The notes: generated by a model from the sequence alone, not told the origin. A DNA stretch of 64,000 bases from an uncultured Lachnospiraceae bacterium (GCA_944381515.1 CALWLM010000118.1:37137-101136), one strand, 5' to 3'; numbered from the stretch's first letter, positions 9,541 through 54,658 are shown. Translations and numbers: made by a program.

Positions 9541-9554
9541 TTTAAGCGATTAAA
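9541..9554. promoter_or_regulatory. candidate LacI-family operator, copy 1 (TTTAAGCGATTAAA)
   Basis: A 14-bp near-palindrome with a central CG (half-sites TTTAAGC / TTTAATC). It is located in the 5' region of the divergent minus-strand GH operon. Confidence 0.45.
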
Positions 9555-9627
9555 TCATTATATATTAAAGTTTAACAAAAATACTGCGGTTGTCAATAAC
9601 TTTTTAGTAAAAACAATGAAAAAAATC

Positions 9628-9656
9628 TTGACATATCCCAGAGTATAGGCTATTAT
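9628..9656 (+). promoter_or_regulatory. sigma-A type promoter for the LacI-family regulator gene
   Basis: TTGACA - 17 nt - TATTAT, ~150 nt upstream of the ATG at 9804. Confidence 0.5.
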
Positions 9657-9671
9657 GTAGGTGAAGCTGAA

Positions 9672-9685
9672 TTTAAGCGATTAAA
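9672..9685. promoter_or_regulatory. candidate LacI-family operator, copy 2 (identical TTTAAGCGATTAAA)
   Basis: An exact second copy of the 14-mer, 16 nt downstream of the -10 of the 9628-9656 promoter. This is a typical repressor roadblock position. Confidence 0.45.
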
Positions 9686-9803
9686 CAAACCGGCAGTAAA
9701 ACGACAATAAGTAAACGGCAGCGAAGCGCCGGAGAGGAGACAATATAACTTTACTTTCAAATTAATTCAGCCTAAATCCGGGAGATGAAGAGAGGAAAGA
9801 TAA

Positions 9804-16926: not shown

Positions 16927-17787
16927 TTAGTTGAAGCCCCGGAAGCCTTTGCCGATAATTTCACTGCTGTTGGTGATGGTGATGAAAGCGCCTGGTTCGT
17001 GGCGGCGGACAAAGTTGCGCAGCTGAACGGCCTGGCTGCGCTTCATCACCGTCAGAATCACGGTCTTGGGACGGTGTGCATAGGCGCCCTCAGCTTTGTA
17101 GACCGTGGCGCTGCGGTTCAGATTTTTCATAATAAAATCGCAGATGGGCTGCGGGTCGTCGCAGACAATGGTGAAATACTTGCAGAGATTGATGTTTTCG
17201 ATGACGCCGTCGATGACCAGAGACTTGGCCATCAGGCCGGTAAAGGAAAAGAGGCCGGTCTGCGTGTCAAAAACAAAGAAGGCGGAAACCACCATGAAAA
17301 GATCCACGATGAAGAGAGCCATGCCGATGTTAAAGCTGCTGTATTTTTTCAGGATCATGGCCACAATGTCTGTGCCTCCGCTGGAAGCGCCGATGTTAAA
17401 CAGAATTGCGGAGCTGACAGCGGGCAGAATGGTGGCGAAGATCAGTTCCAGCACAGGCTCATTGGTGACGGGCTGCGAGATAGGGAACCATTTGTCGGCC
17501 AGGCTCAGCGCCACGGAAGTTAATATGCTTACGTAAACGGTTTTGATTCCAAAGCTTTTGCCCAGGAAAATAAAACCAAAGACCAACAGCACCATATTGA
17601 TGATAAAGGTATAGGTGCTGGCGCTCAAGGCTCCCAGCTGTCCCAGGATGACGGCAAAGCCGGTGACGCCGCCGAAGGAAAAGTTGTTGGGAAATTTAAA
17701 GACATGGACGCCGACCACCAGAATCAGGGTGGCGATGGTCAGAATACTGTACTCAATCAGTGTCTGTGTCACTTTGCTGCGTTCCAT
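16927..17787 (-). CDS. YitT-family (DUF161/DUF2179) membrane protein
   Basis: Multi-TM N-terminal part and a C-terminal ...AFITITNSSEIIGKGFRGF motif. I preferred the ATG at 17787 (286 aa) over the track TTG start; the start is uncertain. Confidence 0.55.
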   Translation of the reverse strand: MERSKVTQTLIEYSILTIATLILVVGVHVFKFPNNFSFGGVTGFAVILGQLGALSASTYTFIINMVLLVFGFIFLGKSFGIKTVYVSILTSVALSLADKWFPISQPVTNEPVLELIFATILPAVSSAILFNIGASSGGTDIVAMILKKYSSFNIGMALFIVDLFMVVSAFFVFDTQTGLFSFTGLMAKSLVIDGVIENINLCKYFTIVCDDPQPICDFIMKNLNRSATVYKAEGAYAHRPKTVILTVMKRSQAVQLRNFVRRHEPGAFITITNSSEIIGKGFRGFN

Positions 17788-17968
17788 AGTTTTAGAAACA
17801 CTCCTTATCGGTAGAAATAGCGGAGAAGAGCCGTCTTTTGCCAGGGGCATTTTCTCCACAGCGTAGCTTAGCACAAAAAGGATTCGGATACAATAAAAAA
17901 GGCTTGAAATTTTCAAAAAACTGTGTTAGGATGAAAAAGTAAATTCCAAAGGTAAATTACAGAGCGTT

Positions 17969-17997
17969 GGATTGTAACTGCCAGAGCAGGCAAGACC
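17969..17997 (+). promoter_or_regulatory. RAT (ribonucleic antiterminator) element with overlapping terminator, leader of licT
   Basis: GGATTGTAACTGCCAGAGCAGGCAAGACC matches the LicT/SacY RAT consensus. It is followed by a stem and a T7 run at 18041-18047. Confidence 0.6.
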
Positions 17998-18108
17998 AGA
18001 ACATCGGAGATAGCCATAGGGTATCTGCGTGTTTGCGGTCTTTTTTTATTGCATGGCGGTGAATTCCCAGATTGGTAATTCCGGCTCTGGAGGGGATGGT
18101 GGGGGCCG

Positions 18109-18948
18109 ATGGTAATCAAGAAAATTTACAACAATAATATCCTGCTGGTGGAGGATGAAAGACAGCTGGAGATGATTCTGATTGGCAGGGGAATTGCCTT
18201 TCAGAAAAAAGTGGGGGACAGAATTTCACAGGACCGGGCCGAGAAGCGTTTCGTCATCGATTCTCCGGAGCTTACCTCCCGCTTCGCGGAGCTGGTAAAG
18301 GAAGTGCCGGTCAATCATCTGGAGCTGGCCTGCCGCATCATCGAGGAGGCGCAGGATGCGCTGGAGGTCAAATTCAGCGATGCCATCTATATCGGACTGT
18401 CGGACCATATCAGTTATGCGCTCCATCGTTACAAGCAGAACCTGCCCCTGAAAAACAATCTTCTCTGGGAGATTCGGCGATTTTATCCGCGGGAGTATGA
18501 ACAGGCGAAAAAAGCTCTGAAAACCATTGCCTACTATGAAAATGCGCATCTGCCGGAGGATGAGGCGGGATATATTGCCCTGCATTTCGTCAACGCTACG
18601 CAGGAGGGCGAGGAAATGCAGACCACGATCATGGTGACAGAGACGGTTCAGGATCTGCTGCAGATCGTGCAGATTCACTTTAATACCCATCTGGATGAAA
18701 AGACGCTCAGCTACGAACGGCTGGTTACCCATCTGCGTTACTTTGTTCACCGGCTGTTTGTAGGGGAATTGGCGGAGAGTGAGGACGATACGCTGTATGA
18801 ACAGGTGAAGGCAGCCTATCCCCGCTGTCACAGCTGCGTTGAAAAAATCTGTGAGTATATCCAGATGAAATTTCATGCGCAGCTCACCCAGGAGGAAAAA
18901 ATGTATCTGATGCTGCATATCAGCCGGGTGACGGACAGAAAGAATTAA
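18109..18948 (+). CDS. licT: BglG/LicT-family PRD-containing transcription antiterminator
   Basis: CAT RNA-binding N-terminus MVIKKIYNNNILLVEDE...IGRGIAF followed by two PRD domains. Confidence 0.85.
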   Translation: MVIKKIYNNNILLVEDERQLEMILIGRGIAFQKKVGDRISQDRAEKRFVIDSPELTSRFAELVKEVPVNHLELACRIIEEAQDALEVKFSDAIYIGLSDHISYALHRYKQNLPLKNNLLWEIRRFYPREYEQAKKALKTIAYYENAHLPEDEAGYIALHFVNATQEGEEMQTTIMVTETVQDLLQIVQIHFNTHLDEKTLSYERLVTHLRYFVHRLFVGELAESEDDTLYEQVKAAYPRCHSCVEKICEYIQMKFHAQLTQEEKMYLMLHISRVTDRKN

Positions 18949-41150: not shown

Positions 41151-41693
41151 TTATTCGGAGGCCAGGCTGTACTCGATGGAGGTTATCTCATCGTTCTCGA
41201 TGATGAAGGACAGCTTTACGCTGCCTTTTACATAGGTGTAAGCATTACCGCTCTGCGTATAATCCTCACCGTAAGCGGCGGTCATATCGGCAGTCGTCAT
41301 GTAAAGGGACACGCCCTCGGGGGTAGATGCCAGGTCGTCCCGCAGGGCGATGGTGGAAATTTCATTGACGCCGTCGGCATTGGGGATGGTGACGATCTCC
41401 ACGCTGCCGTAAGTATAGGTGTAGTCGGTGCCCTGTCCGGCGCAGCTGGGGGCGCTGAATACGTTATCCGTCTCGCCGACTGCGCTGATCATATCATCCT
41501 GAGCCATGCCGGGTACCAGCTTCTGGCCGTTGAGCTCAAAGTAAAAGCCTTCGTCCGCCGCAGCCGCAGCCGTGGTCTCGCTTCCGCCGGCAGCCGTGGT
41601 AGAGGTATTGGAATCTCCGCCGCAGCCTACAGCCAGGAGAGCGGACAGGCACAGTATCAGCGCACAGGCAGTTAATTTCTTTTTCATTACCAT
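41151..41693 (-). CDS. hypothetical lipoprotein
   Basis: Lipobox LAVGC, a Thr/Ala-rich linker, then a ~130-aa domain. AGGAG lies 6 nt before the ATG at 41693. Confidence 0.5.
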   Translation of the reverse strand: MVMKKKLTACALILCLSALLAVGCGGDSNTSTTAAGGSETTAAAAADEGFYFELNGQKLVPGMAQDDMISAVGETDNVFSAPSCAGQGTDYTYTYGSVEIVTIPNADGVNEISTIALRDDLASTPEGVSLYMTTADMTAAYGEDYTQSGNAYTYVKGSVKLSFIIENDEITSIEYSLASE

Positions 41694-41886: not shown

Positions 41887-42563
41887 TCATCCCGCTTTTA
41901 TATAGGCCTGGGCCTCGTCGCGGGACAGATGGAAAGTCAAAATCAATTCTTCTGCAATTTTGCTGTCGGAGCAGCCGGCCCTGCGCAGCATCGCGATTGC
42001 CCCTGCTATTCCTGCCCGCAAGCCTTCTTCCCGTCCTTTTTCTTGACCTTCTTTGCGTCCTTCTTCCCGTCCCTGGAGAAGACCTTTTTCCTCACCCTGC
42101 TTAATATAACGATCCAGCAGTTCACACATAGTGATTCCTCCTTCCTGTTTCAGAAATTCATTGGCTAGGATATCCAGATATCGTTTATCCTTGGTGAGTT
42201 CGGCCAAAAGCCGAAGCACCTCAGATACATGTTTTAGCTTGTGGGCTGAGAAAGCTGTTCCCTTTTGCACACTGCGGAAATATTCTGCCACAGCGCGAAA
42301 ATCGCTGTGAAAGCAGGAAATCTGTTCATCGGACAGGAAGGCCATCTCGAAGAGATTCATCTGATAATCATTTACATAGGGCTTTAACCGATCTTCTATC
42401 GGGATGGCTTCACTCAGTTTTCTTGCCTTTTGCCAGTGGGCCCGTCCTCCAATTGATCTTCCGCAATCAGTTTTTCACCGGAAAAAAGCAGAGTATTTAC
42501 AATATCTGCGAAAACATCGTTGTAGGATTCCAGGCGTTTTTCAGCAATATCTTTTTGTCCCAT
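41887..42563 (-). pseudogene. remnant of an Rpn/YhgA-family (PD-(D/E)XK) recombination-promoting nuclease / putative transposase gene with an internal deletion and frame break
   Basis: An N-terminal fragment (MGQKDIAEKRLESYNDVFADIVNTLLFSGEKLI...) ends at a stop. A second ORF carries only the family's C-terminal region with EGR/EKG repeats (...GREEGRKEGQEKGREEGLRAG...). The catalytic core in between is missing. Confidence 0.4.
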
Positions 42564-43044: not shown

Positions 43045-44085
43045 CTAATTTCCGGCGGCGATCTCCGCCTCCTGACGGGCCTTATCCTCCTGATACCAGA
43101 GGGCCTTTTCCTGCCAGGCAGCCTCCAGAGCCTCTTCTCCGCGGCGGCTCTCCAGGCCGCACTGATCCCGCAGGATGGCTCCGAAGTAGTGGGACAGCTT
43201 TTCTGCTCCCGACAGATTCAGATGGAGCCCGCCGTCGTAGGTGTCGGTCTGAAAATCCAGCCCGGCCTCGTCGGCCTGATCCAGAAGATTTACATAGAGA
43301 AGATCATGCTCGTTGGCATAATCGACGATCTGAGCATCCCACTCGTCGTACCAGTAAGGGTAAAGGCTGGGCGCCTTGACCAGCACCAGCTGGATGCCGT
43401 TTTCCTCGCAGAGGATGCGGATCTTGTCCAGATATTCCATCTGCGCAGCGTCGATGGTATAATCTCCCAGAGGTCTTCCCTCCGGTACGTTTTCGGCGGG
43501 AAGGGAATCCACCCGCATATAGTAGCCGTTGTGGGAGACCAGATCCCGGTGGAAGAGATAGGTGAAATCATCCGCCGTCAGCTCCGTGATCCGGGAATGG
43601 TAACGCAGCAGAGGAAATACATAGTCGAGGAAGGATTCCTCCTCTGTCATGGAATCCAGAATGGCGTTTACCTTGGAAAGGGACCAGCGCATGCCATCCA
43701 GAGTCATCCGGTTGTAGGATTCCCTGGGAGCCTCGTTGTAGGGAACAGCCAGAACGCTGAAGACCACCACGTCGGGAGTCTCGTAACGCAGGGTATCCTC
43801 CAGAATATAATAGGACTGGCTCACCAGCTGCTGAGCGCTGCCCCGGATATAGCTGTTGATTCCGTATTCCTCCCACAGCACCATGGGGGAGAAGTTCTCA
43901 TAGACCTCGCAGTCTCCCAGGAAGATCACGTCGTGATCCTTTTCTTCATCGTAGTATTCGGCGATAAAGTTGCCTTCCACCACATCGTCCATATATTTAG
44001 GCATAACCAGGCGCTGCAAGAGATACAGGCTGCCGGCGATAAACAGTATTATGACGACGGCGGACAAAAACTTTTTCTTTTTCAT
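43045..44085 (-). CDS. signal-anchored SGNH-like (AlgX/AlgJ/DltD-analogous) protein, predicted extracytoplasmic acyl/aminoacyl transferase
   Basis: N-terminal TM (FLSAVVIILFIAGSLYLL). C-terminal block DGGLHLNLSG resembles the SGNH D-x-x-H block. The N-terminal block reads FLGDCEV instead of GDS. It is the last gene of the operon with the MBOAT. Confidence 0.5.
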   Translation of the reverse strand: MKKKKFLSAVVIILFIAGSLYLLQRLVMPKYMDDVVEGNFIAEYYDEEKDHDVIFLGDCEVYENFSPMVLWEEYGINSYIRGSAQQLVSQSYYILEDTLRYETPDVVVFSVLAVPYNEAPRESYNRMTLDGMRWSLSKVNAILDSMTEEESFLDYVFPLLRYHSRITELTADDFTYLFHRDLVSHNGYYMRVDSLPAENVPEGRPLGDYTIDAAQMEYLDKIRILCEENGIQLVLVKAPSLYPYWYDEWDAQIVDYANEHDLLYVNLLDQADEAGLDFQTDTYDGGLHLNLSGAEKLSHYFGAILRDQCGLESRRGEEALEAAWQEKALWYQEDKARQEAEIAAGN

Positions 44086-44096: not shown

Positions 44097-45686
44097 TTAA
44101 AACTGATTGTAGATGAACTGGGTGGCGTCATAGCCGATGCCGTAAGCGCCAAACAGAATCACGATGAGGAACAGGCCATACCAAGCAATAACGCGCACCG
44201 GCAGGGCGCGGGCGGCGATGAGACCGCGCACGGACTGGCCTTTTTCCTGAATCCGGCTGATGATAAAGACCAGAATCAGAGATACCAGGAGAATCCAGTA
44301 ATCTACAGCGGACAGGCCGATGGCAAGCAGGCTTCCATCCCAGAATACCGAGAGACGGAAGGATGTAAACATGCTGACAAAAGAGCGGACCACAGTGGAG
44401 ACGCTGTCATAATAGTCAAACATGCACAGAAGGCTTACGAACAAGAAGGTACGGACCATTCGAAAGCTATTCCACAGAGCATTTTTTTCCAGCCGGGGGA
44501 AACGCTCGTAGAAGCGCCGGTAGGAAGGCTCCAGCTCCTGGGACAAAAGCAGAAAGAAGCCGTTTAACAGCCCCCAGACAACGAAGTTCCAGCTGGCGCC
44601 ATGCCAGATGCCGGTGGACAGCCACACGGTCATGGTGGCGGTGTAGACAGTGAAACGGCGGCTTAAGCCCTCGTGGCCGGCGGCCTTCATCTTCTTGGCC
44701 CGGGCCAGCATGGCAGGACTGGTGGAAATCGGATAGAACAGATAGTCCTTAAACCAGTTGCACAGAGATATATGCCAGCGGTGCCAGTAGTCCTTCAGAC
44801 TCTTGGAGAAATAGGGCCGCTTGAAGTTTTCCGGCAGGGTGATGCCCAGGGCCTGGGAAAGACCGATGACGATATCGATACCGCCGGAAAAATCCATATA
44901 CAGATCGATGGCATAAAAGATCATGCCGACGAAAACGTAAGCTCCGGTATAGGCGGACGGGTCGCCGGATATGGTGGTCAGGCCGGCGATAATCCGGTCT
45001 GCTATGACCATCTTTTTGAAGTATCCGTAGAGCATCCGCTGCAGGCCGAAGGATACCTGCCTGCCATCGAAGGGATGACTGGCATAGAGGTCCTTTGACA
45101 GAGAGCCAAAACGGCTGATGGGGCCCTGGATCAGCTGCGGGAAAAAGGAGACGAACAGAGAAAACTTAAAGAAATTTCTCTCCGGCTCGTATTCTCCCCG
45201 GTACAGATCAATCAGATACCCCATGGTCTGGAAGGTGTAAAAGGAAATGCCCAGGGGAAGAGTCAGCTGAAAGAACAGATCTTCCCCGGAGGCTCCGAAA
45301 AGGCCGCTTATGTTGGAGACAACAAAGTTTCCATATTTGATGACGCCCAGAATGCCGAAATTGAACAGCAGGGCGAATATCAGCCAGGCCTTTTGCTTTT
45401 TCTTGACCGCAGCCTTGTAGGCTTTCTTTTCCTCGCGGCTGAGCTCATCCTTATGCAGCTTAAGCCTTGCGTCCTGCCTGCGCTTAAGCTCCCAGATCCG
45501 CAGAGACACAAAGTAAGCGCAGATCGTGGTGGACAGGATATAGCCCAGGTATTTGACTCCGGAAAAGCAGTAAAAGGCGTAACTGGCAATAAGCAGCAGG
45601 GCCCACTGCCACCGGCGCGGAATCACATAATAGAGAATAAGCAGCAGTCCGGCAAAAAGCAGAAAGCTGTAGGAGGTGATGGACAT
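44097..45686 (-). CDS. MBOAT-family membrane O-acyltransferase (AlgI/DltB-like, long form)
   Basis: ...FYTFQTMGYLIDLYRG... and the conserved His region (WHRWHISL). 529 aa, polytopic. Confidence 0.8.
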   Translation of the reverse strand: MSITSYSFLLFAGLLLILYYVIPRRWQWALLLIASYAFYCFSGVKYLGYILSTTICAYFVSLRIWELKRRQDARLKLHKDELSREEKKAYKAAVKKKQKAWLIFALLFNFGILGVIKYGNFVVSNISGLFGASGEDLFFQLTLPLGISFYTFQTMGYLIDLYRGEYEPERNFFKFSLFVSFFPQLIQGPISRFGSLSKDLYASHPFDGRQVSFGLQRMLYGYFKKMVIADRIIAGLTTISGDPSAYTGAYVFVGMIFYAIDLYMDFSGGIDIVIGLSQALGITLPENFKRPYFSKSLKDYWHRWHISLCNWFKDYLFYPISTSPAMLARAKKMKAAGHEGLSRRFTVYTATMTVWLSTGIWHGASWNFVVWGLLNGFFLLLSQELEPSYRRFYERFPRLEKNALWNSFRMVRTFLFVSLLCMFDYYDSVSTVVRSFVSMFTSFRLSVFWDGSLLAIGLSAVDYWILLVSLILVFIISRIQEKGQSVRGLIAARALPVRVIAWYGLFLIVILFGAYGIGYDATQFIYNQF

Positions 45687-45688
45687 GC

Positions 45689-45919
45689 TTATTCCTCATC
45701 TTCCAGGCGCTCGATCAGAGCCCACAGGGCCTGAGCCGAGTTGAAATTCTCCGGGATAATATCCTTGGCGGAAATGTTTACGTCAAACTCATTGTTGATT
45801 TCCGCGATCAGAGAGACGATGTCGAAGGAGTCCAGGATCTCGTCGTCGATCAGCGTATCGCAGGTCTCAAAGTCCACATCGGGGTGCAGGTCGTTTAAAA
45901 TCTCCAATAAGGTATCCAT
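45689..45919 (-). CDS. DltC-like aminoacyl/acyl carrier protein
   Basis: 76 aa. ...DEILDSFDIVSLIAEINNEFDV... parallels the DltC phosphopantetheine-Ser region (...LLDSFGTVELLLAIENRFDI...). Confidence 0.7.
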   Translation of the reverse strand: MDTLLEILNDLHPDVDFETCDTLIDDEILDSFDIVSLIAEINNEFDVNISAKDIIPENFNSAQALWALIERLEDEE

Positions 45920-45921: not shown

Positions 45922-47448
45922 TTATCTTTTCCTTTCCTTTAAATAATTTTCTTTTAGAAGCACACGGTTGATTTTACCGGTAGCTGTCAGAGGCATGGTC
46001 TCCAGCTGGCGGATGGTGTTGGGAAGCATGTAGCGCTGGAGCTTTTCTTTCAGGGCCTGCATCAGATCTTTTTCGCTGATGCCGCCCACATAGAAGAGGA
46101 CAATCTTGCCCTTTTCCGTATCGTAGATGCAGCCGGAGCTTTTGATTTCGTCCAGCATGTTCACATTGGCCTCGATCTCGCCCAGCTCGATGCGGTGGCC
46201 CATATGCTTGATCTGAAAATCCTTGCGGGAGACGAATACCAGATCGCCGTCCTTGTTAAAGCGGCCGATATCTCCGGTCCGGTAGATGAGCTCCGGCCAG
46301 GATTTGTTCAGCGGATTCTGCACAAAGGAGGAGGCTGTCCGCTCCGGATCGTTGATGTAGCCCAGAGAAACCGCCGTTCCGCGAATGCAGATTTCTCCCT
46401 GTTCGCCGGGGGCGGCCAGGGTGTTGTCGTCCTTTAACAGCAGAATTTCCGTGTTTTTGAAGGGACGGCCGATGGGGATGGCCTCGTCCAGACCAAACTC
46501 CCTCTCCACATGGTAGTAGCAGCAGACGCCGGTGCCCTCGGTGGGACCGTAGAGGTTGGTAAAGCGCGCGTTGGGCAGGGCCCGTTTCCAGATATTGAAC
46601 TGCTTCACCGGGAAAACCTCGCCCACAAAGGCGATGGTATGCAGATATTTTGGAGGCAGCTCCGTAAGAGCGCCAAAGGCCGACAGCATGGTCAGTGCCG
46701 AGACCACCCAGCACAGGGTGTTGACCTGATGTTCATTTAAAAACTCCAGGACTTTCATCGGGAATTTGAACATGCTCTTGGGCACGATGTAGGCCGTGGC
46801 CCCGCACTTCAGCGTAGGATAGATATCCTTTAAGCTGGCGTCGAAGTAAAGAGGGGTCTGGTTGGCAAAAACCGTATCCTCGTTAAAGCCCAGGGTCTCT
46901 GACAGCTGTTCGATGTAGTTGATCAGAGAACGGTGGCAGGCCGCCACGCCCTTGGGGATGCCGGTGGAACCGGATGTAAAGAACACATAGACCGGATCGG
47001 TGTCAATGGTGCGGCTGCGCACATTCGCCAGAGCGGCTGCATCGGCCGGGGTCTGAATCAGGTCGCCGTAAAGCCAGAGTTCGCCGTCAAAATCAAAGGT
47101 GCGGGCCGTATCCAGAGTGGTTTCATCGCAGATAATGGCTCTGGGATGAAGATTTTGAAGGATTAAATCAATGCGGGCCCGGGGCATTTCCTCGTCGATG
47201 GGGACATAATAGCAGCCCCCCTGCAATACGCCCAGGAAGGCGACGACCGCATTGGGATGGCGGTTCATAAAGACCACCACCGGCTGGCGGAACATCCCCA
47301 GGGCTGCAAGATAAGAGCCGATGGAACGGCTTCTGTCATCCAGCTGCCGGAAGGTGACGCCGTCTTCTTGGCTGACGCCGCCAAAGGCCAGTTTGTCCGG
47401 CACGCGCCGTACAGTCTGATCCAGATAATCCAGAATGTGATTTTGCAT
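45922..47448 (-). CDS. DltA-like adenylation enzyme (amino acid--carrier protein ligase)
   Basis: FTSGSTGIPKGV, NLYGPTE, FQIKHMGHRIELGEIE and ATGKINR motifs. 508 aa, i.e. DltA-sized. RBS AAAAGAGG. Confidence 0.8.
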   Translation of the reverse strand: MQNHILDYLDQTVRRVPDKLAFGGVSQEDGVTFRQLDDRSRSIGSYLAALGMFRQPVVVFMNRHPNAVVAFLGVLQGGCYYVPIDEEMPRARIDLILQNLHPRAIICDETTLDTARTFDFDGELWLYGDLIQTPADAAALANVRSRTIDTDPVYVFFTSGSTGIPKGVAACHRSLINYIEQLSETLGFNEDTVFANQTPLYFDASLKDIYPTLKCGATAYIVPKSMFKFPMKVLEFLNEHQVNTLCWVVSALTMLSAFGALTELPPKYLHTIAFVGEVFPVKQFNIWKRALPNARFTNLYGPTEGTGVCCYYHVEREFGLDEAIPIGRPFKNTEILLLKDDNTLAAPGEQGEICIRGTAVSLGYINDPERTASSFVQNPLNKSWPELIYRTGDIGRFNKDGDLVFVSRKDFQIKHMGHRIELGEIEANVNMLDEIKSSGCIYDTEKGKIVLFYVGGISEKDLMQALKEKLQRYMLPNTIRQLETMPLTATGKINRVLLKENYLKERKR

Positions 47449-47575
47449 GATTACCTCTTTTCAAAATGTTCTTGATCTTAAATATCTTGGCTGACGAGGC
47501 GGGGAAAGCTCCCCGCCATCATCAACATAGCATGATTTGCGGGCAGATACAAGCCCGGCTGCCGTAAAAAGTTTA

Positions 47576-50500
47576 TTATTCAACCTCCGGATAGAGGCTC
47601 TTGTCGTACACGTGGGTGCCGTTGTGCGTGGAGGAGTAGGCCTCCAGCTCTGCATCCGTCAGATAGAAGAAGGTGGAACCGTCCTTTCTGGGCGTGCAGT
47701 CAAAGTGATACCAGCCCTCGCCGATGTTGACCAGACTCCAGAAATGGGTCGGGATATCGGTGGAACCCTCCGGCACCACCTTGGCCACGTCGATGTTGGC
47801 GATACCGGCGCGGGTCAGCAGGAATTTGGCCTGAGCGGCATAGGTGAAGCAGTCGCCGCTGTGCTGGGTAAAGCCCTGGTACGCTCCCAGAGTGTAATCT
47901 TCCTCCTGGGCATGGCTGGTATAGCTGGTATTCTGACGAATCCAGTTGTAAATAGCCCGGAGCTTCTCCATTTCGGTCATGTCATCCGTGATGATCTCCG
48001 CCAGGATTTCGTCTGCCATGGCGTTCACCTCGTCGATGTCGGCCACTTCTGCATCCGCCTCCAGCACATAGACTGTGCCGGTGGCAGTGGCGGCGTTGCC
48101 GGAGGAGTCGGTGACGGTGGCCGTATAGGTGTAATCGCCGACGGTATTTAAATCTACCTGGCTGTTGTCCGCTTCTACGGTCAGCTGATCTTCGGTGTCC
48201 AGATTGTCATAGGCCCGGATCGCTTTTTTGTAGGAAACGGTGCCGCCCACGGTCACATGAATGTCGTCGGCAAAGACCTCGGGAGCCGCCGTATCCTTTA
48301 CGACCAGCGTGGAGGAGAGGGTCTGATCCCCCGCCTGTATGGTTACCGGATATTCTCCAGGGACGCTGGTATCCACCTCGGGCTCCGCGGAAAAGGAGAC
48401 GGCGTCCGCCGTTATGCCCTGGCCTTCCAGTACGGACAGATATTCATCGGACAGAAAGGCGGAGGCGGCGGGAATCTCCTCGCCGGTACCGATTTCCACC
48501 GAGGGTCTGGCGCCGCTGACGGTCAGGGTGGCAGTCACGGTAGCGCTGTTGCCGGCGGCGTCGGTGAGTATAATCTCCACCTGCTGATCGCCGTCGGTAT
48601 ACAGATCGGGCTCAGAGGCAAAGGCCGCGGTTACTTCGGTGGCATCCTGCAGCTGATCGATAAAGTCCATGGGCTCCACAGCTTCACCGTAAGCGGTGGT
48701 TACAGCTTTGGTGGTAGCCGCTGGCTTGGTAGTATCCTGTACATGGATGGTGGAATGATAGGTAAAGGGCGACAGGCGGATTTCCACCTCATAGTCTCCT
48801 GGTACACTGGTGTCGATATTCAGGGGCTGCGTATTTTTGGCCTTGTCGCCGTTATAGCGCATCAGATCCGCAGTGGTGATGGAGGCGCCCGCTTCCACAT
48901 TGAGGGTGCCGATCACGCGGCGTCCAAAGTAAAGGCCGACTGCCAGGCAGATAACGGCGATGAAGGCTGCGGCGCCGATGATAAAGGGCAGCGTCTGGTT
49001 CTTGCGGCGGCGAGGCGGCCGGGATGCGCCTCCGCTTCCGTTTGTTCCATTTCCCCCATTCCTGCCGCCATTTCCACCGTTTCCTCCGTTACGGCTGCTG
49101 CCGCTGCGTCCGGCGGCTTCCGGACGGGGACGGCGATTTGACGCGGAGGGACGGTCTGTCCCCTGGGCGTTTCGCTCCTTGTCCCGGGGCGAAGGGGCGG
49201 AAGTTCTGGATGCGGCAGAGGCGGTGTGCCTGGGGCCGGATTCTTTGAGAACGTCCGTCTCCGGAACGAAGCGCTTGGGCGTATGGGCTGCCGGTCTGGC
49301 TGCCGGGGCCGCCGTTCGCTCGGAAGCGGAAGTACGGCCGGCGGAGCTGCTGCCTGAACTGCTGCCGGAACCGGCGCTGCGTGTGACCGGCTGACGGCTG
49401 GAGACGGACGGAGTCCGGCTCTGGCGGGTCAGGGGAATCACATTGATGCCGTCGTCGGGACGGCCGGGCACGGTCAGGCGGGGAGCCTCATTGTCTTTTT
49501 TCAGTTCCTCCAGCACAGTGGGAGAGGGAGCTGGCGCCTCCTGCTTTTGCAGGCTGGCGAATACGGAATCTGCCAGCACGGAATCCTTCAGCATGGAATC
49601 GGTCAGGACAGAATCTCCCAGGGCAGGATCGTCAAATACGGTATCGGCGTGGGCACCGTTTTGGAATACGGAGTCAGAGCTTCTCTGCTCCTGCATATGA
49701 ACGGAAGCCTTGGGACTGTCCAGCCGGGGGCTGCCCAGCTCGGGCGTGTTGAGCAGATGGCTGGGAATACCCTTGCGCACCAGGCGGATACCCTTTTTAT
49801 GATCGGCAAAATAGATATTGGGCAGATCGCGGCTCAAAAAGAGGTAGCCGCCCTCCGTCACCGAATAGGCGCCGATATTATGGAACAGGAAATAGTCGCC
49901 GATGCGCAGATCCTGTACCGGGAAATTGCGGGCCACCACGTCGTTAAAGGTACACAGGGAGCCGCACAGCATATAGGTTTTGGGAGGCTCGTCCTTTATC
50001 CGGTGCATGGGTACATGCTCGATCCGGGGCGTTTTCATGGCCATATTCTGGCCGTAGTAATTGATATGGTGAATGCCGCCGTCGATGATGCAGTAGCCGG
50101 CTTCCTTATTGAATTTAACGTCCTCTGCCCGGGTGGCAAAATATCCGCAGGAAGCCACGGGATAACGGCCCATTTCCAGAATGATCTGGCAGGGATATTT
50201 TTTCTCCTCCAGATAGTCGCGGATGCGGGTCAGATCGGCGAATTCATTGTCAAAGGAATCGTTGGTGAAATAGGGGACCCACAGGCCTGTGCCGTATTCC
50301 ATCTGTTCCGGCTGGAAATCATAAATTTCTTTCAGCTTGTCGCAGAAGCCGAATACATATTCCAGCTCCTCGATGGTATGGGCCACTTTCTTTTTCTGAG
50401 TGCCGGTGAAATACTGAATGCCCAGAATGTGGACATAGGGATTTAACTGCCGGCGGGCTATGATCTGTTCGATATCCTCCTCGTTCATGCCAAACTGGGA

Positions 50501-50920
50501 GCCGTTGGTCAGACGCAGAATCACCGGAATTACCTGGCGCAGATTGGTTGCGCATTCCGATATCAAATCAAACTGGTGGACGGACTCCGCGGTCATGACG
50601 CCTACCCGGTAATTTGCGGCGACGCGCACGGAGTCGGCAGTCTTATTGATGCCGGAGAAAACCACTTTATCCATGGGGATGGCGCAGTTTTTGCAGATCT
50701 CCAGTTCGCCGGGGGAGCAGACCTCGTACTTGGGGACCAGATCGTCCATTGCGTTCAGAACAAAGGGATTTGCCTTGACGGCATAGCACATTTTGGCACG
50801 GTCTCCAAGAAGCTCGCAGATCATGGCCACCTTGCGCCGCAGTATGTCAAGGTCAAAGATATAGGCAGGCGTCTGGATGACGCCGTTCTTTACATTGGAA
50901 ACAATATCCTGATATTCCAT
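47576..50920 (-). CDS. chimeric membrane protein: N-terminal PLP-dependent Orn/DAP/Arg-type decarboxylase, low-complexity linker, single TM, Ig-like repeats, C-terminal transglutaminase-like domain
   Basis: A continuous 1114-codon ORF. It carries CYAVKANPF (PLP Lys) through GAYSV (decarboxylase). It carries the TM LPFIIGAAAFIAVICLAVGLYFG after RPPRRRK. It carries three TSVPG(D/E)Y...GN..T Ig-like repeats. It carries GDCFTYA / THFW / YHFD (transglutaminase Cys-His-Asp). Confidence 0.7.
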   Translation of the reverse strand: MEYQDIVSNVKNGVIQTPAYIFDLDILRRKVAMICELLGDRAKMCYAVKANPFVLNAMDDLVPKYEVCSPGELEICKNCAIPMDKVVFSGINKTADSVRVAANYRVGVMTAESVHQFDLISECATNLRQVIPVILRLTNGSQFGMNEEDIEQIIARRQLNPYVHILGIQYFTGTQKKKVAHTIEELEYVFGFCDKLKEIYDFQPEQMEYGTGLWVPYFTNDSFDNEFADLTRIRDYLEEKKYPCQIILEMGRYPVASCGYFATRAEDVKFNKEAGYCIIDGGIHHINYYGQNMAMKTPRIEHVPMHRIKDEPPKTYMLCGSLCTFNDVVARNFPVQDLRIGDYFLFHNIGAYSVTEGGYLFLSRDLPNIYFADHKKGIRLVRKGIPSHLLNTPELGSPRLDSPKASVHMQEQRSSDSVFQNGAHADTVFDDPALGDSVLTDSMLKDSVLADSVFASLQKQEAPAPSPTVLEELKKDNEAPRLTVPGRPDDGINVIPLTRQSRTPSVSSRQPVTRSAGSGSSSGSSSAGRTSASERTAAPAARPAAHTPKRFVPETDVLKESGPRHTASAASRTSAPSPRDKERNAQGTDRPSASNRRPRPEAAGRSGSSRNGGNGGNGGRNGGNGTNGSGGASRPPRRRKNQTLPFIIGAAAFIAVICLAVGLYFGRRVIGTLNVEAGASITTADLMRYNGDKAKNTQPLNIDTSVPGDYEVEIRLSPFTYHSTIHVQDTTKPAATTKAVTTAYGEAVEPMDFIDQLQDATEVTAAFASEPDLYTDGDQQVEIILTDAAGNSATVTATLTVSGARPSVEIGTGEEIPAASAFLSDEYLSVLEGQGITADAVSFSAEPEVDTSVPGEYPVTIQAGDQTLSSTLVVKDTAAPEVFADDIHVTVGGTVSYKKAIRAYDNLDTEDQLTVEADNSQVDLNTVGDYTYTATVTDSSGNAATATGTVYVLEADAEVADIDEVNAMADEILAEIITDDMTEMEKLRAIYNWIRQNTSYTSHAQEEDYTLGAYQGFTQHSGDCFTYAAQAKFLLTRAGIANIDVAKVVPEGSTDIPTHFWSLVNIGEGWYHFDCTPRKDGSTFFYLTDAELEAYSSTHNGTHVYDKSLYPEVE

Positions 50921-50953: not shown

Positions 50954-50982
50954 AGTGTAGCATAAAGAAAAGACCTTGACAA
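50954..50982 (-). promoter_or_regulatory. candidate sigma-A promoter of the chimera/Dlt-like operon (TTGTCA-17-TACACT)
   Basis: Minus-strand -35 is at 50977-50982 and -10 at 50954-50959, ~30 nt upstream of the ATG at 50920. Confidence 0.35.
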
Positions 50983-51142: not shown

Positions 51143-52033
51143 TTATTTCGTATTGGAAGATCTGTGCGCGTCCTTTACGGCAATGTCGATATAGTCGCCT
51201 ACGGCATGGATGTAGGGGAATACCAGATGAAGAGTACCGTCCTGCCAGTAGGTGCAGCCCACAGCGGAAGGGTTCTTGCCGTCAAAGTCCATCTGATTAA
51301 AAAGCTCCGCCAGGGCGGCCTCGTCTGATTTGGCGGCCCGGTTGGGGATGAATTCCTCGTACATATCAAGGAGGCCTTCCATGGTGATGTGACGGGTCAC
51401 ATCGGTGCCGTCCGGAGCGGCTACGGTGTAGGCGGTCTGAGCCTCGCCGTCCGCCGCAGCCTTATCGGCGGCAATCAGATCGGCAGCGATGGAATTGGTG
51501 CTGCAAAGCTGATGCAGGCGAAGGCTGTCGCCGGTGGAAGGATCGATATTGTAGGAGGTCAGAGTGACGGTAGGATAGGCAGCATCCTGAACCGTGGTCT
51601 CCGTGATTTTTACAAGGCTTGCCAGACGGGAGGTCTGGGAGCTCAAGCGCCAGCTGACGGTAACGGTGTCTCCCTCGGAGAGTCCTTCCGCCGTGCTGGC
51701 GGCGTCCTGCCGGAAATAGTCGTTCCAGCGCGTCACATCCGACTCACTGCGCAGCCCTGTCAGCTGGGGATAGCTGATGTCGGAGCCTTCCGGCGCTTCG
51801 TAGCTTACCAGAGAGACGGCAAATTTCGGTTCGGAGGCAGTGGTCTCGGAGGCGGTAGTCTCCGGCGCTGCCGTCGCAGGCTCCTGCGTGGGCGCCTCGG
51901 TGGACGGGGCCTGGGTCGTGGAAGGCTGGGTGATGACAACAGGCTCATCGGCTGCACAGGAGCAGGCCGACAGGACCAGTGCGCACGTAATAGACAATAC
52001 AGTAAAGGCGATTCCCTTTTTCATCTTTTGCAT
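51143..52033 (-). CDS. lipoprotein, DUF4163/DUF3298-like flavour
   Basis: Lipobox LSAC, a Thr/Pro/Ala-rich linker, then a ~230-aa domain. The start is ambiguous between MQKMKK and MKK. Confidence 0.45.
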   Translation of the reverse strand: MQKMKKGIAFTVLSITCALVLSACSCAADEPVVITQPSTTQAPSTEAPTQEPATAAPETTASETTASEPKFAVSLVSYEAPEGSDISYPQLTGLRSESDVTRWNDYFRQDAASTAEGLSEGDTVTVSWRLSSQTSRLASLVKITETTVQDAAYPTVTLTSYNIDPSTGDSLRLHQLCSTNSIAADLIAADKAAADGEAQTAYTVAAPDGTDVTRHITMEGLLDMYEEFIPNRAAKSDEAALAELFNQMDFDGKNPSAVGCTYWQDGTLHLVFPYIHAVGDYIDIAVKDAHRSSNTK

Positions 52034-52135
52034 CCTTTCTGCTGCGCCAGCTTTGCAACCGGCTGCGCAGCGGCAGTTTTCATACATAGTAACGTCCGCG
52101 CCGGCGGATATATTTATGTGATGCCTTATGAGACG

Positions 52136-52206: not shown

Positions 52207-53160
52207 TTAGTAGCCTTCCTTCAGCAAATCCTGGTAGACAGATCGGGAAATTTCAAACTGAGGGGAGCCCATGGAGCCGGGAGCGATCTCATATTCGTCG
52301 AACTGGATTACCAGGTTGCCGTCCTCGGAGAAGAAGAAATTCTGGTCCGGAGTGATGGAGTGAAAATCCATGCCCTCATATTCGGTGTCGATCCAGTAAG
52401 TTATATTGTCGTCCTTTGCCATCTGTTCCTTCATCTGGCGAAGAATTTCATCACTGATGACAGTCTGATAATCGCTTCCCTCCAGGAAAAGGTCAGACAG
52501 CTGTACGATCTGGCCGCTCTGCTTGTCAATATGATAATAGTAGTAGGTCTGCGTGCCGCTGCCGGAACCGTAGTAAACCAGAATCTGCAAGGTGAACCAG
52601 GCGTCGTTGTTGGTAACGACCTGATAGGAGACGGACAGTTCTGTGTGGCCGGAGTCGCCAAGCGCGGCCCGATCGGCCTCAAACTCTGCGATCAGCCGGT
52701 CAGTCATGGCCTGCACATCGGCGTTGATGGCATCTACGGAATCGCCCAGAGAGCTGTTCTCGCTTTCCGTCTCCAGCTCCACCTGAGGCACGTCCACGCT
52801 GGAGCGGTGGTAGCCGTCATCGTAAAAATAGTTGCGAATGGTGATGACCTCCACAATGGCGCCGATGACTGGCAGCTCGCTCATGGTCTCAGCGGCCGAC
52901 GCGCTGATATTGGGAAGCAGAAAAAAGAGGGCGAGTACAGCGGCGGCAGCAGCGGCCGGCCGGGGCAAACGGGGTTTCCTCCGGGAGGAGGACAGCTTGC
53001 GTGCCGCAGGAAATGGCCCTGGCTCTTCCGCCTCATCGGAGGAGCCGGGCGTGCTTGGCAGACGCCTTAAGGTGCGCCGGATGCACTCCTCTGTCTCCGG
53101 AGGAAGCGTAAGTCTTTCCTTCCGTGCCAGACTGCGTATTTGTTTGTCGATAGGGTTCAT
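52207..53160 (-). CDS. anti-sigma factor, RsiV-like (cytoplasmic N-domain, one TM, extracellular DUF4163/DUF3298-like domain)
   Basis: N-terminal ~35-aa anti-sigma segment, TM AAAAAVLALFFLLPNISA, and a ~220-aa extracellular domain. The start is 12 nt after the sigma gene stop. Confidence 0.55.
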   Translation of the reverse strand: MNPIDKQIRSLARKERLTLPPETEECIRRTLRRLPSTPGSSDEAEEPGPFPAARKLSSSRRKPRLPRPAAAAAAVLALFFLLPNISASAAETMSELPVIGAIVEVITIRNYFYDDGYHRSSVDVPQVELETESENSSLGDSVDAINADVQAMTDRLIAEFEADRAALGDSGHTELSVSYQVVTNNDAWFTLQILVYYGSGSGTQTYYYYHIDKQSGQIVQLSDLFLEGSDYQTVISDEILRQMKEQMAKDDNITYWIDTEYEGMDFHSITPDQNFFFSEDGNLVIQFDEYEIAPGSMGSPQFEISRSVYQDLLKEGY

Positions 53161-53171: not shown

Positions 53172-53660
53172 TTATAGATCGAGCATCGTCTTCAGGCGGC
53201 CTCTGGCCCGGGAGAGCCGGGTTTTGACCGCGCCGGCGGACAGCCCTGTTATTTCACTGATCTGTTTCACGGACATTTCCTCGTAATAGAAAAGGATAAC
53301 AACGGTGCGGTATTCCACCGGCAGGGCCTTTATTGCATCTCCCAGGGCCATATCGGCGGAATAGGATGGAGTATCGGAAGGCTCTTTACCGGGCGGGATG
53401 TCCGAGAGCGAGACGGAAGGCTTGCGTTGGCGAAGAATATCATAGGCCGCGTTATGCAGAATACGTATGATCCAGGGACGAAATTTATCCGGGTCCCTGA
53501 GTGCGCCAAGCTTTTCATAGCCGGCGCACAAGGCCTCCTGGAGGGCGTCTCTGGCATCCTCCTCGTCGCGCAGCAGGCTGACAGCCAGCCTGTAAAGGCT
53601 CGCCTGGCAGGCAGTGATCTGTTCGGTGTACCACTTCTTTTTATCGGTTATATATGTCAT
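53172..53660 (-). CDS. ECF-type RNA polymerase sigma factor (sigma-70 regions 2 and 4)
   Basis: Region 2 (...YRLAVSLLRDEEDARDALQEAL...FRPWIIRILHN...) and region 4 HTH (...MSVKQISEITGLSAGAVKTRLSRARGRLK). 162 aa. Confidence 0.8.
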   Translation of the reverse strand: MTYITDKKKWYTEQITACQASLYRLAVSLLRDEEDARDALQEALCAGYEKLGALRDPDKFRPWIIRILHNAAYDILRQRKPSVSLSDIPPGKEPSDTPSYSADMALGDAIKALPVEYRTVVILFYYEEMSVKQISEITGLSAGAVKTRLSRARGRLKTMLDL

Positions 53661-53677: not shown

Positions 53678-54646
53678 TCATTGGGCAGGCTTTGACTGGA
53701 CGCAGGTTTCGTAGATCCATTGACCCCACTGGGCGTAATATTTGCCGTAAGGGTGCGTATCATCGGCGCTGTATTCTGCATTCAAAGCCCCGTTTTCATC
53801 GTCAAACAGGGGATTGACATCGAGATAAAAAATGTTTTCATTGTCGGCCAGGGCGGCGATTTCCGCATTGAGACGGTTAATATTATCGTTGTTATAGATC
53901 TCGTCTGAGTCGGATCGGCTGGCGGTCAGGTGCAGGTTGGCGCACACGTAGAGAGTGGCCTGGGGCTGCATCTGGCGGATGAAATCTACCACCTCGCTGT
54001 ATTGGCTGACTACGGATGAAAAACTGTATCCCAGTTCGTTGATCCCCAGCATTAAAAAGATTTTACCATAGCTTTTTTGCTCAAACAAGGTGGTCAATGT
54101 TACTTTTCCCACATTCGGCACGGAAACTTCTTCGGAGAGGACCTTAAAGGAGCTCATTCCCGATGTGGCAAAGAAGTTGGCGGTGTCAAGACCGGCGTAT
54201 TCCATCAGGCCCACGGTGCGGGAATCTCCGATAAAGAGCACGTCGGAGAAGAATTCCTCTTTGGTAGGCGTTTCGGAGGGAGCAGCCTCTCCCGACGTAT
54301 TGGAGCCGGCGGTGGTTTCGTTTGTATTGGTTTCGCCGGACTCGTTTCCGGCAGCGGTGGTTTCATCGGCAGGATTACCTGCTGCGCCGGTTTCTCCGGC
54401 GGCCGTCTCGCCTGCCGGGTCTGTCTCGCCTGCCGGAGCTGTTTCATCTGCCGGGAGCGCTGCGCCTGTTTCGTCCTCATTGCCCTGGGGTTCCGTCTGA
54501 GACACGGTGGGAGGCTCCTGGACGATGGGGGTCTGCGTATCGTCAGCATCCTGCTTGAAAAGATCGTTGCGCAGGACAAAGGGCATCAGTACCAGGACAG
54601 AGAGCACGATTAGTATAGAAAAAAGAATATCGGAATGTTTCTTCAT
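53678..54646 (-). CDS. membrane-anchored GDSL/SGNH-family protein (PatB/OatA-C-like O-acetyltransferase/esterase)
   Basis: N-terminal TM, an acidic Thr/Gly/Glu repeat linker (AGETDPAGETAAGETGAAG), the GDS block FIGDSRT and the DxxH block DDTHPY. The stop overlaps the sigma gene start by 19 nt. Confidence 0.65.
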   Translation of the reverse strand: MKKHSDILFSILIVLSVLVLMPFVLRNDLFKQDADDTQTPIVQEPPTVSQTEPQGNEDETGAALPADETAPAGETDPAGETAAGETGAAGNPADETTAAGNESGETNTNETTAGSNTSGEAAPSETPTKEEFFSDVLFIGDSRTVGLMEYAGLDTANFFATSGMSSFKVLSEEVSVPNVGKVTLTTLFEQKSYGKIFLMLGINELGYSFSSVVSQYSEVVDFIRQMQPQATLYVCANLHLTASRSDSDEIYNNDNINRLNAEIAALADNENIFYLDVNPLFDDENGALNAEYSADDTHPYGKYYAQWGQWIYETCVQSKPAQ

Positions 54647-54658
54647 GTCTGTCTCCTC

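Follow-up and report, generated by a model that had tools for sequence, protein, structure and literature searches.

A decarboxylase-transglutaminase fusion protein in a predicted Dlt-like cassette of gut Lachnospiraceae

Acyl export by membrane-bound O-acyltransferases (MBOATs) involves an acyl-shuttle motif, FXYXXF, whose tyrosine is acylated in DltX and PatA; the motif sits either on the microprotein DltX or is fused C-terminally to MBOATs that use acetyl-CoA (PMC12148441). In antibiotic biosynthesis, BtrK, the L-glutamyl-[BtrI carrier protein] decarboxylase, belongs to a clade related to diaminopimelate decarboxylase (DAPDC) that decarboxylates amino-acid moieties tethered to larger molecules (PMC7857480). 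The activity of BtrK and VinO is confined to carrier-bound glutamate or 3-methylaspartate (PMC7857480; PMC11284099), and VinO decarboxylates 3-methylaspartyl-VinL once VinN has loaded it, the thioester having to form first (PMC11284099). Here we describe a gene in which a BtrK-related decarboxylase is fused to an extracellular transglutaminase-like domain. It lies on the minus strand of a 64,000-nucleotide stretch of DNA, hereafter the window, from an uncultured Lachnospiraceae bacterium (GCA_944381515.1, CALWLM010000118.1:37137-101136), at the head of a gene cassette for an adenylating ligase, a carrier protein, an MBOAT, an SGNH-fold protein and a lipoprotein. The cassette represents one variant of an uncharacterised but widespread cousin of the Dlt system, which probably decorates the envelope with an amino group derived from aspartate or glutamate. 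The fusion would be a bitopic protein supplying two accessory activities to such a Dlt-like envelope aminoacylation pathway.

The fusion gene and its domains

The fusion gene is real and conserved in gut Lachnospiraceae. It is a single uninterrupted open reading frame (ORF) of 1114 codons on the minus strand, as a preliminary description of this DNA had stated, and the domains were recovered by profile hidden Markov models, alignment or modelling. From N to C terminus it comprises a pyridoxal 5'-phosphate (PLP) decarboxylase, a disordered tail, a transmembrane helix, an immunoglobulin (Ig)-like stalk and a transglutaminase-like domain. In window positions and amino acid residues (aa), its features are:

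47576-50920, minus strand: fusion gene, 1114 aa; uninterrupted ORF, full architecture kept in about 20 clusters
49736-50920, minus strand: cytoplasmic fold-type-III PLP decarboxylase domain, aa 1-395; PF02784, PF00278 and BtrK match
49001-49735, minus strand: low-complexity cytoplasmic tail or linker, aa 396-640, about 245 aa, with DSVF/DSVL repeats; 22% mean identity
49250-49276, minus strand: short linear motif (K/R)RF(V/T)PET(D/N)V, aa 549-557; invariant inside the variable linker
48923-48994, minus strand: single predicted transmembrane helix, aa ~643-666, N-in/C-out; only hydropathy peak (2.58), RPPRRRK before the helix
48056-48916, minus strand: extracellular stalk of four ~70-aa Ig-like/Rib-type modules, A-B-A'-B'; Pfam and internal similarity
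47579-48055, minus strand: extracellular transglutaminase-like Cys-His-Asp domain, aa 956-1114
50954-50982, minus strand: promoter-like site TTGTCA-17-TACACT (with TG) upstream of the fusion gene; consensus scan only

In a search of 5.8 billion proteins, independent Lachnospiraceae assemblies yielded about 20 clusters with the complete architecture (50-81% identity). NCBI, ENA and Logan assemblies added seven variants with at least 90% identity, each exactly 1114 aa long. Aligned across the family, the decarboxylase and transglutaminase domains share on average 75% identity each with the window protein and the linker 22%; judging from this alignment, both catalytic domains are under strong and equal constraint. 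The fusion is rare: clustering at 50% leaves essentially a single representative (P0014) of the ~20 clusters defined at 90% identity, and the fusion's sole label in any source is 'hypothetical protein [Lachnospiraceae bacterium]'. An alignment scan of species-representative genomes gave, among the matches listed, only relatives of the decarboxylase domain (at most 47% identity) and no full-length fusion. As the preliminary description had supposed, no characterised protein of this architecture is named in the ~20 clusters or in the literature found. The literature also yielded no description of the cassette, its parts or the decarboxylase-transglutaminase architecture, although its coverage was incomplete and absence is not proof.

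That two genes were merged into the long ORF by an assembly error or a frameshift is scarcely credible. The linker is of low complexity and GC-rich (65% GC), an indel-prone sort of sequence, but about 20 diverged clusters retain one ORF with linkers that differ in length and sequence and hold no stop codon. The 1114-aa length is moreover repeated in several independent assemblies, GC content at third codon positions is even along the whole gene, and an invariant in-frame motif lies inside the linker.

The decarboxylase domain matches Orn_Arg_deC_N (PF02784, aa 27-256) with 63.4 bits against a cut-off of 23.4, and Orn_DAP_Arg_deC (PF00278, aa 201-350) with 38.4 bits against 23 (Pfam). K49 (CYAVKANPF), E249 and R252 (EMGRY), C323 and Y352 (GAYS) are invariant in 20 homologues. 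The earlier call of a fold-type-III decarboxylase, made from the CYAVKANPF lysine and the GAYS motif, is thereby confirmed. BtrK (2J66/7RU7) ranks first of 46 PDB matches (E 5e-29, aligned aa 15-381) and outranks every diaminopimelate, ornithine, lysine and arginine decarboxylase among solved structures; the alignment is significant yet divergent. The best NCBIfam model, TIGR03099, scores 151 bits, far under its cut-off of 478. Identity with LysA was rejected, as the equivalog model TIGR01048 gives 148 bits against a cut-off of 297.9 and the gene context also speaks against it. Fold-type-III PLP decarboxylases are obligate dimers with shared active sites, and the fusion protein is for this reason probably dimeric.

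In the linker, the DSVLTDS-type repeats noted before are present, while its length is about 245 aa and not the ~220 aa first given. R550, F551, P553, E554, T555 and V557 of the linear motif are invariant in 20 fusion homologues, and a VPE(S/T)(D/E)-like string occurs in the tails of only 2 of 149 stand-alone relatives of the C-terminal half (see below). It is speculation that the RFVPETDV motif may be a docking site for a cassette partner. The stand-alone relatives often have long low-complexity tails of aromatic/acidic tandem repeats, with seven copies of DSAF in P0075. By this likeness, the fusion 'linker' is the ancestral cytoplasmic tail of a transglutaminase protein. The tail repeats in P0075, P0065, P0204 and P0088, among them DSAF x7, SAYDSPPRRR, YQSE and GYE, resemble the DSVF/DSVL repeats of the window protein (aa ~415-455). 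A folded cytoplasmic domain was considered for the long-tailed relatives and rejected: three of the longest give only Ig and Transglut_core matches in Pfam, and the remaining long tails are of low complexity by eye.

The N-in/C-out topology proposed earlier from RPPRRRK and one hydrophobic helix is supported by several features of the sequence. Inspection of sequence and hydropathy revealed no N-terminal signal peptide, and the basic patch directly precedes the single helix. The same orientation is favoured by the dependence of the PLP enzyme's partners on ATP and a carrier protein, and by the Ig/Rib modules, which are of the surface-protein kind and stand behind the same tail-then-helix anchor as in the stand-alone relatives. 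Of these, 142 of 149 have a strong hydrophobic helix in their first 400 residues, mostly behind a short basic tail. The stalk matches Rib, Bact_surface_Ig-like (aa ~883-952, above the gathering score) and HYR in Pfam. Three Ig-like repeats had been counted in it; internal similarity (A to A', score 86; B to B', score 84) resolves four modules of ~70 aa, of which A' is absent in six fusion homologues.

The C-terminal domain matches Transglut_core (PF01841, aa 973-1075) above the gathering score and has the transglutaminase/papain-like fold. Its triad C1024 (GDCFTYA), H1059 (THFW) and D1074 (YHFD), already recognised in the preliminary description, is invariant in 20 fusion homologues and invariant or at least 90% conserved in 63 diverse relatives. 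A sequence search of solved structures with the extracellular half returned nothing useful. The wider fold neighbourhood contains Cys-His-Asp hydrolases (LapG, the isopeptidases PeiW/PeiP, PNGase) as well as enzymes that carry acyl groups as Cys thioesters to amines (arylamine N-acyltransferases, the amide synthase GdmF, TG2/TG3). The fold is therefore undecisive on the role of the domain.

The cassette and its sister loci

Downstream of the fusion gene, beyond a 127-bp gap (47449-47575) in which no terminator-like site was found, the cassette continues on the same strand:

45922-47448, minus strand: stand-alone adenylation enzyme (ligase) of the nonribosomal peptide synthetase (NRPS) type, pocket code DAKSAVLGVK; TIGR01733 354 bits, above cut-off
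45689-45919, minus strand: 76-aa carrier protein with LDSFDIV phosphopantetheine site; PP-binding score at cut-off
44097-45686, minus strand: DltB-like MBOAT with two extra C-terminal helices (aa 458-476, 499-517); DltB is its sole solved relative
44100-44117, minus strand: C-terminal acyl-shuttle motif FIYNQF (FXYXXF) of the MBOAT; conserved in all sister cassettes
43045-44085, minus strand: predicted membrane-anchored SGNH-fold acyl-transfer enzyme, 346 aa, Cys nucleophile (GDC59E, N125, D284...H288)
41151-41687, minus strand: ~178-aa lipoprotein, last cassette member; 32-91% identity to the gene after SGNH/transglutaminase in L084 and L087-L089

Genomic contexts of the fusion homologues were taken from exact-protein look-ups. 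The order fusion, ligase (508 aa), carrier (76 aa), MBOAT (528-529 aa) and SGNH-like protein (345-348 aa) is kept in homologues, and the cassette is syntenic in three unrelated flanking contexts (L081, L082/L083 and L084). In L082, a separate 293-aa Transglut_core protein (17482-18363, minus strand) is encoded directly after the fusion-type cassette on the opposite strand. A sigma-V-type promoter 5' of the fusion gene was considered in view of the sigV-rsiV genes just upstream and rejected: the only match is sigma-70-like, and the sigV neighbourhood is not kept in L081 or L082.

The partners resemble Dlt proteins at a distance, as the ligase scores 271 bits with the DltA model (cut-off 560), the MBOAT 158 bits with DltB (cut-off 375) and the carrier a weak 30 bits with DltC (cut-off 68). 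Ligase, carrier, MBOAT and SGNH-like protein had all been named as operon partners before; the assignment of the MBOAT to the AlgI type has to be changed, DltB being its sole solved relative. The histidine of its RWH motif aligns with the catalytic histidine of DltB. The protein is ~100 residues longer than DltB and terminates in ...ATQFIYNQF. No DltX-like ORF was found in the gap at 47449-47575 or in overlapping frames, which is explained by the location of the shuttle motif at the MBOAT's own C terminus. Because it is DltB-like yet bears FXYXXF on extra C-terminal helices, the MBOAT is by its sequence a hybrid, carrier-protein-dependent like DltB and self-shuttling like PatA/AlgI. The invariant C terminus of the fusion, SLYPE(V/I)(E/Q), was tried as a DltX-like shuttle and rejected; it does not fit FXYXXF, and the MBOAT has the perfect motif.

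The SGNH-like protein has an N-terminal anchor and only a weak GDSL match by profile. A sequence search of solved structures with it gave nothing useful, whereas a fold search assigned it to the SGNH fold, in agreement with its first classification. It departs from that family in its nucleophile. Block I, G57-D58-C59-E60, is invariant in 49 homologues and forms a complete signature with N125 and D284...H288; there is no serine at the nucleophile position, and the cysteine aligns with GDS/GAS of cassettes that have no transglutaminase. The invariant G-D-C-E block therefore predicts Cys and not Ser as nucleophile. The Cys-type enzyme is present in all seven examined cassettes with a transglutaminase, and the Ser-type in all four without one (L006, L007, L008 and L086). 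The SGNH component has thousands of homologues, among them Cys-type proteins in the cultured Acetatifactor muris and Roseburia, which probably carry a sister cassette.

The lipoprotein gene is parted from the rest of the window cassette by ~1.3 kb, while SGNH and lipoprotein genes adjoin in the 90%-identical relative L084; the segment 41721-43044 is probably a recent insertion. It holds an ORF for 157 aa (41887-42360, minus strand) with a Glu/Gly/Lys-rich C-terminal half and no family match.

Searched exhaustively with HMMER, 1.84 billion representatives returned 4168 matches to aa 640-1114, 845 of them at E<=1e-30. Nearly all are stand-alone proteins of 400-700 aa with Ig-like modules and a C-terminal Transglut_core, most of them with a short basic tail and one helix, and only one representative (P0014) among the best 150 matches is a decarboxylase fusion. 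Genomic context was sampled for six stand-alone relatives on informative contigs, and in five of them ligase, carrier, MBOAT or SGNH-type genes and an aspartate-type racemase gene lie beside the transglutaminase gene. L087, L088 and L089 encode a transglutaminase, a 238-246-aa racemase of the Asp/Glu family, ligase, carrier, MBOAT, a ~350-aa protein and a ~180-aa lipoprotein. In L091 the transglutaminase is accompanied by racemase, ligase and a 173-aa protein, and in L092 racemase, ligase, carrier, MBOAT and a 356-aa protein are encoded on the opposite strand, two genes off the transglutaminase. The racemases score 193-212 bits with the 'amino acid racemase' model TIGR00035, above cut-off, and 200-214 bits with the cysteate racemase model CuyB (cut-off 190), which makes them aspartate-type enzymes whose substrates are acidic amino acids with four carbons. 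A GATase_7 gene beside L087 was considered as an AsnH-like amidase and rejected, PurF being its best match.

Identities between the window and the racemase-type cassettes are 55-68% for the ligase, 69-79% for the carrier, 52-55% for the MBOAT, 63-67% for the Cys-type SGNH protein and 32-40% for the lipoprotein. By these sequence relations, a transglutaminase ectoenzyme with Dlt-like machinery is the rule in a large family, and the fusion with a decarboxylase is a special case. Since the cassette also stands beside stand-alone transglutaminases, the window gene is a fusion of two cassette parts, with the decarboxylase in the racemase's place. The 'unprecedented chimera' of the preliminary description thus becomes a gene fusion inside an existing, widespread cassette, because its half composed of transmembrane helix, Ig-like modules and transglutaminase is common as a stand-alone protein, normally beside the same ligase, carrier, MBOAT and SGNH genes and an aspartate-type racemase.

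The closest non-fusion relatives of the decarboxylase come, among the matches listed, from other Clostridia (39-47% identity), and all nine have ligase, decarboxylase and carrier as neighbours. P0023/L086 shows a covalent ligase-decarboxylase fusion, with genes for a carrier, an MBOAT and a Ser-type SGNH-like protein after it. Both this arrangement and the rank of BtrK among solved structures bear out the BtrK analogy drawn at the outset. In L003 (6417-17760, uncultured Lachnospiraceae) the trio lies within a glycan locus, next to genes for a GFO/IDH/MocA oxidoreductase, hexapeptide acyltransferase, DegT aminotransferase, glycosyltransferase, UDP-GlcNAc 2-epimerase, EpsG polymerase and DUF6077, which suggests cytoplasmic N-aminoacylation of an amino sugar instead of MBOAT export. 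The trio is found fused, linked to an MBOAT or in a glycan locus, and is thus a portable module whose product is an unusual aminoacyl donor for decorating glycans or the envelope. The window cassette is a mosaic, with the decarboxylase of the Clostridia trio lineage and the remaining genes of the racemase-type transglutaminase lineage, since these other genes are 52-79% identical to racemase-type cassettes against 22-59% to L086.

Upstream of the fusion gene, 51143-52087 (minus strand) encodes a 314-aa predicted lipoprotein (lipobox LSAC) without Pfam or NCBIfam match, whose homologues (38-79% identity) occupy the same place in L081, L084 and L085 but not in L082. Further upstream, 53678-56083 (minus strand) holds a second MBOAT (474 aa, ending FMYFRF, which conforms to FXYXXF) and a GDSL protein (322 aa); downstream of this pair lie genes for an extracytoplasmic function (ECF) sigma factor (53172-53660) and an RsiV-like anti-sigma factor (52207-53160; NF052658, 236 bits against a cut-off of 250). 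By sequence, the pair looks like PatA/PatB-type O-acetylation in a sigV-type lysozyme-stress operon. The same arrangement is present in L084 and not in L081 or L082.

Proposed pathway and its alternatives

Specificity positions of the ligase were mapped by alignment to LgrA and conserved core motifs of adenylation domains (A-domains). The window code D-A-K-S-A-V-L-G-V-K equals that of the racemase-type ligase of L089; the L087 and L088 code DAKSAGLGMK differs in two positions, and decarboxylase-type ligases from cassettes without transglutaminase retain D-x-K-S (DVKSLSLCNK). We take K239 in the pocket to be a feature of Stachelhaus codes for acidic residues. The BtrK/VinO precedent, the aspartate-type racemase in the sister slot and the ligase pocket are three independent lines from which we infer aspartate or glutamate as the ligase substrate. 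Alpha-decarboxylation on the carrier requires attachment of the residue through the side-chain carboxyl, the arrangement known from BtrI and VinL, and by analogy the product would be beta-alanyl- or gamma-aminobutyryl (GABA)-S-carrier.

In the pathway that we propose, the ligase would adenylate Asp (or Glu) and load it onto the 76-aa carrier, probably through the side-chain carboxyl. The membrane-tethered PLP domain would then strip the alpha-carboxyl from the carrier-bound residue in the fashion of BtrK and VinO, leaving a beta-alanyl or GABA-type thioester that is achiral and has no negative charge. Crossing the membrane through the MBOAT, this group would be transferred to the tyrosine in the MBOAT's FIYNQF shuttle, and from there to the Cys of the anchored SGNH-fold enzyme. 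Lastly, the stalked transglutaminase-like domain would hand the group to a wall acceptor, most plausibly an amine (giving an amide), or otherwise edit it. The fusion would thus bring the tailoring step and the last outside step to the same MBOAT, and a decarboxylase tethered beside the MBOAT would channel the tailored aminoacyl-carrier into export.

To this model as a whole we assign a probability of about 0.55. Its parts differ in standing. An extracytoplasmic, carrier-dependent aminoacylation pathway is highly probable, action of the decarboxylase on a carrier-bound acidic amino acid is the better-than-even choice for that domain, and a final acyl transfer to an amine by the transglutaminase domain is put forward tentatively.

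Two alternatives concern the decarboxylase. It could act on a free metabolite ahead of the ligase, so that beta-alanine, GABA or lysine would be made and then loaded and tethering would mean co-localisation only. Most enzymes of this fold do use free substrates, and the racemase of the sister cassettes, as inferred from its family, acts on a free amino acid before ligation. We nevertheless regard this order of events as improbable, given that the best match, BtrK, is carrier-dependent, that ligase-decarboxylase didomain proteins exist, and that the LysA model gives 148 bits against a cut-off of 298. The ligase pocket, too, matches that of one racemase-type cassette exactly and keeps K239, which fits an acidic residue and not beta-alanine, GABA or lysine. 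That same shared pocket, together with the shared functional slot, would suit a PLP domain repurposed as racemase or epimerase in place of the cofactor-independent aspartate racemase, with the same D-amino acid being installed; alanine racemase has this fold too, and PF01168 matches weakly (23.7 bits). That match is below its own cut-off, though, whereas both decarboxylase Pfam domains, including the C-terminal beta-sandwich, are above theirs. With the nearest relatives all decarboxylases and the decarboxylase-type Cys323 and EMGR motif invariant, a racemase is very improbable here. We know of no racemase within PF02784/PF00278.

The step outside the membrane is more evenly contested. The occurrence of Cys-type SGNH proteins only with a transglutaminase suggests a relay of thioesters with aminolysis as its last step, which would form an amide on a wall amine. 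In the same pathway the ectodomain could instead be a hydrolase, either an editing esterase that strips off or redistributes aminoacyl groups, in the manner of DltE acting on D-Ala in Lactiplantibacillus, or a wall (iso)peptidase that opens acceptor sites, with the Cys-type SGNH enzyme making the final transfer. The fold's characterised bacterial members include the proteases LapG and PeiW/PeiP along with putative proteases, and transglutaminase-less cassettes exist and are presumably functional. Recruitment of an additional extracellular esterase is known from Dlt systems. An SGNH enzyme alone suffices in the DltD and PatB systems (PMC12148441). A hydrolase would, however, leave the restriction of Cys-type SGNH proteins to transglutaminase cassettes unexplained, and many amine-acylating transferases share the fold. 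We consider a hydrolase doubtful and place the transferase slightly above it, rating neither highly. Carried further, the transferase reading would make the cassette family an ATP-free route to amide (isopeptide-type) wall bonds outside the membrane, in which the aminoacyl group passes via a tyrosyl ester and a Cys-SGNH thioester to N-acylation or cross-linking by the transglutaminase. As part of this joint proposal, which taken together is unlikely, the exported group would be beta-alanyl or GABA here and D-aspartyl in the racemase-type sisters, and the acceptor would be peptidoglycan or some other polymer of the wall. In this scheme the fusion with a decarboxylase would be a lineage-specific delivery of a charge-neutralised, achiral, peptidase-resistant amine handle.

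Several observations weigh against the proposed pathway. In the decarboxylase domain the G-G-G phosphate loop is replaced by an invariant GTG (G210-T211-G212), and the position of the ring-stacking His is taken by F171 (Tyr in BtrK). D235, canonical in A-domains for alpha-amino acids, is present in the ligase, which is closer to ordinary NRPS A-domains (LgrA A2, 349 bits) than to beta-amino-acid enzymes of the VinN class (169 bits), and side-chain loading is therefore only presumed. As the same pocket serves racemase- and decarboxylase-type cassettes and no racemase is encoded here, the stereoisomer loaded is not fixed. The correlation of Cys and Ser types comes from a small sample of 11 cassettes that are phylogenetically non-independent. 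Most of the PF01841 proteins characterised in bacteria hydrolyse their substrates (LapG, PeiW/PeiP), so that precedent does not favour a transferase. One transglutaminase relative, in L093, has no cassette within its 13-kb contig; this 1142-aa protein with many Ig modules (2593-10262) is flanked by a Peptidase_M15 (VanY-like) protein, an RCC1/WD40 protein and the ~200-aa lipoprotein, and transglutaminase and lipoprotein may form a unit of their own.

Envelope modifications of this kind usually determine the charge of the cell surface and how sensitive cells are to lysozyme and antimicrobial peptides, and are therefore relevant to host-microbe interaction. Lachnospiraceae are dominant gut commensals whose envelope chemistry is poorly known. 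In lactic acid bacteria, D-Asp is joined to peptidoglycan via its beta-carboxyl and the free alpha-carboxyl is amidated, which cuts negative charge and raises resistance to lysozyme and cationic peptides (PMC4155827). Decarboxylation would neutralise the charge likewise and also remove the chiral centre. The cassette suggests a pathway that installs a group other than D-alanine with two thiol enzymes outside the cell. If true, it would extend carrier-protein-dependent MBOAT export past D-alanine, assign a role to an extensive 'transglutaminase-like' family of surface proteins, and let carrier-bound decarboxylation, familiar from antibiotic pathways, also serve envelope decoration. More important than the rare fusion itself is the large uncharacterised cassette family that it exposes.

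Comparison with known systems

The nearest relatives of the C-terminal half are the stand-alone proteins P0062 (L087), P0063 (L088) and P0081 (L089), likewise uncharacterised, which combine transmembrane helix, Ig-like modules and transglutaminase domain and are 37-53% identical to it. They have the same triad and anchor and a repeat-rich cytoplasmic tail, and their cassette neighbours are 32-79% identical to those of the window. They differ in being encoded by separate genes and in having a 238-246-aa aspartate-type racemase as the tailoring enzyme. Identity to TglA of Streptococcus pyogenes (PDB 9CRN) and to the TGase of Streptococcus suis (4XZ7) is only 12-21%, and the profile match to TglA has an E value of 0.04; no description of TglA function was found in the literature, of which coverage was incomplete.

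On the cytoplasmic side, the exosortase-A-associated trio of proteobacterial exopolysaccharide loci (ligase TIGR03098, decarboxylase TIGR03099 and a carrier) likewise places ligase, carrier and decarboxylase in glycan loci, comparable to L003. Its identity is 24-28% among the matches listed, the ligase is of the acyl-CoA-ligase type, and neither MBOAT nor transglutaminase is present. Closer in predicted chemistry are BtrI/BtrJ/BtrK of butirosin and VinN/VinL/VinO of vicenistatin biosynthesis, in which a PLP decarboxylase acts on an acidic residue tethered by its side chain to a stand-alone carrier, so that a GABA- or beta-amino-acyl thioester results; like the window ligase, VinN is an adenylation enzyme. 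Those are cytoplasmic antibiotic pathways, in contrast to the window decarboxylase, which is predicted to be membrane-tethered, is fused to an ectoenzyme and would pass its product to MBOAT export.

For the export step, PatA/PatB and AlgI/AlgJ share with the window an MBOAT with two extra C-terminal helices bearing FXYXXF and an anchored SGNH partner, but use acetyl-CoA and a Ser nucleophile and have no transglutaminase partner. The overall plan is that of the Dlt pathway of Firmicutes (DltA/DltC/DltB/DltX/DltD): a small carrier is charged by an adenylating ligase, the aminoacyl group travels outward via a DltB-type MBOAT to the tyrosine of an FXYXXF motif, and an anchored SGNH-fold enzyme is located outside. 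The window cassette is set apart by equivalog scores for DltA, DltB and DltC that are all below cut-offs, and by the lack of a DltX gene, the shuttle motif being fused to the MBOAT as in PatA/AlgI. Its SGNH nucleophile is predicted to be Cys, and K239 marks the pocket of its ligase, whose partner enzyme is an aspartate-type racemase or a decarboxylase and not an alanine racemase. To the Dlt plan it adds a transglutaminase-like ectoenzyme and a lipoprotein.

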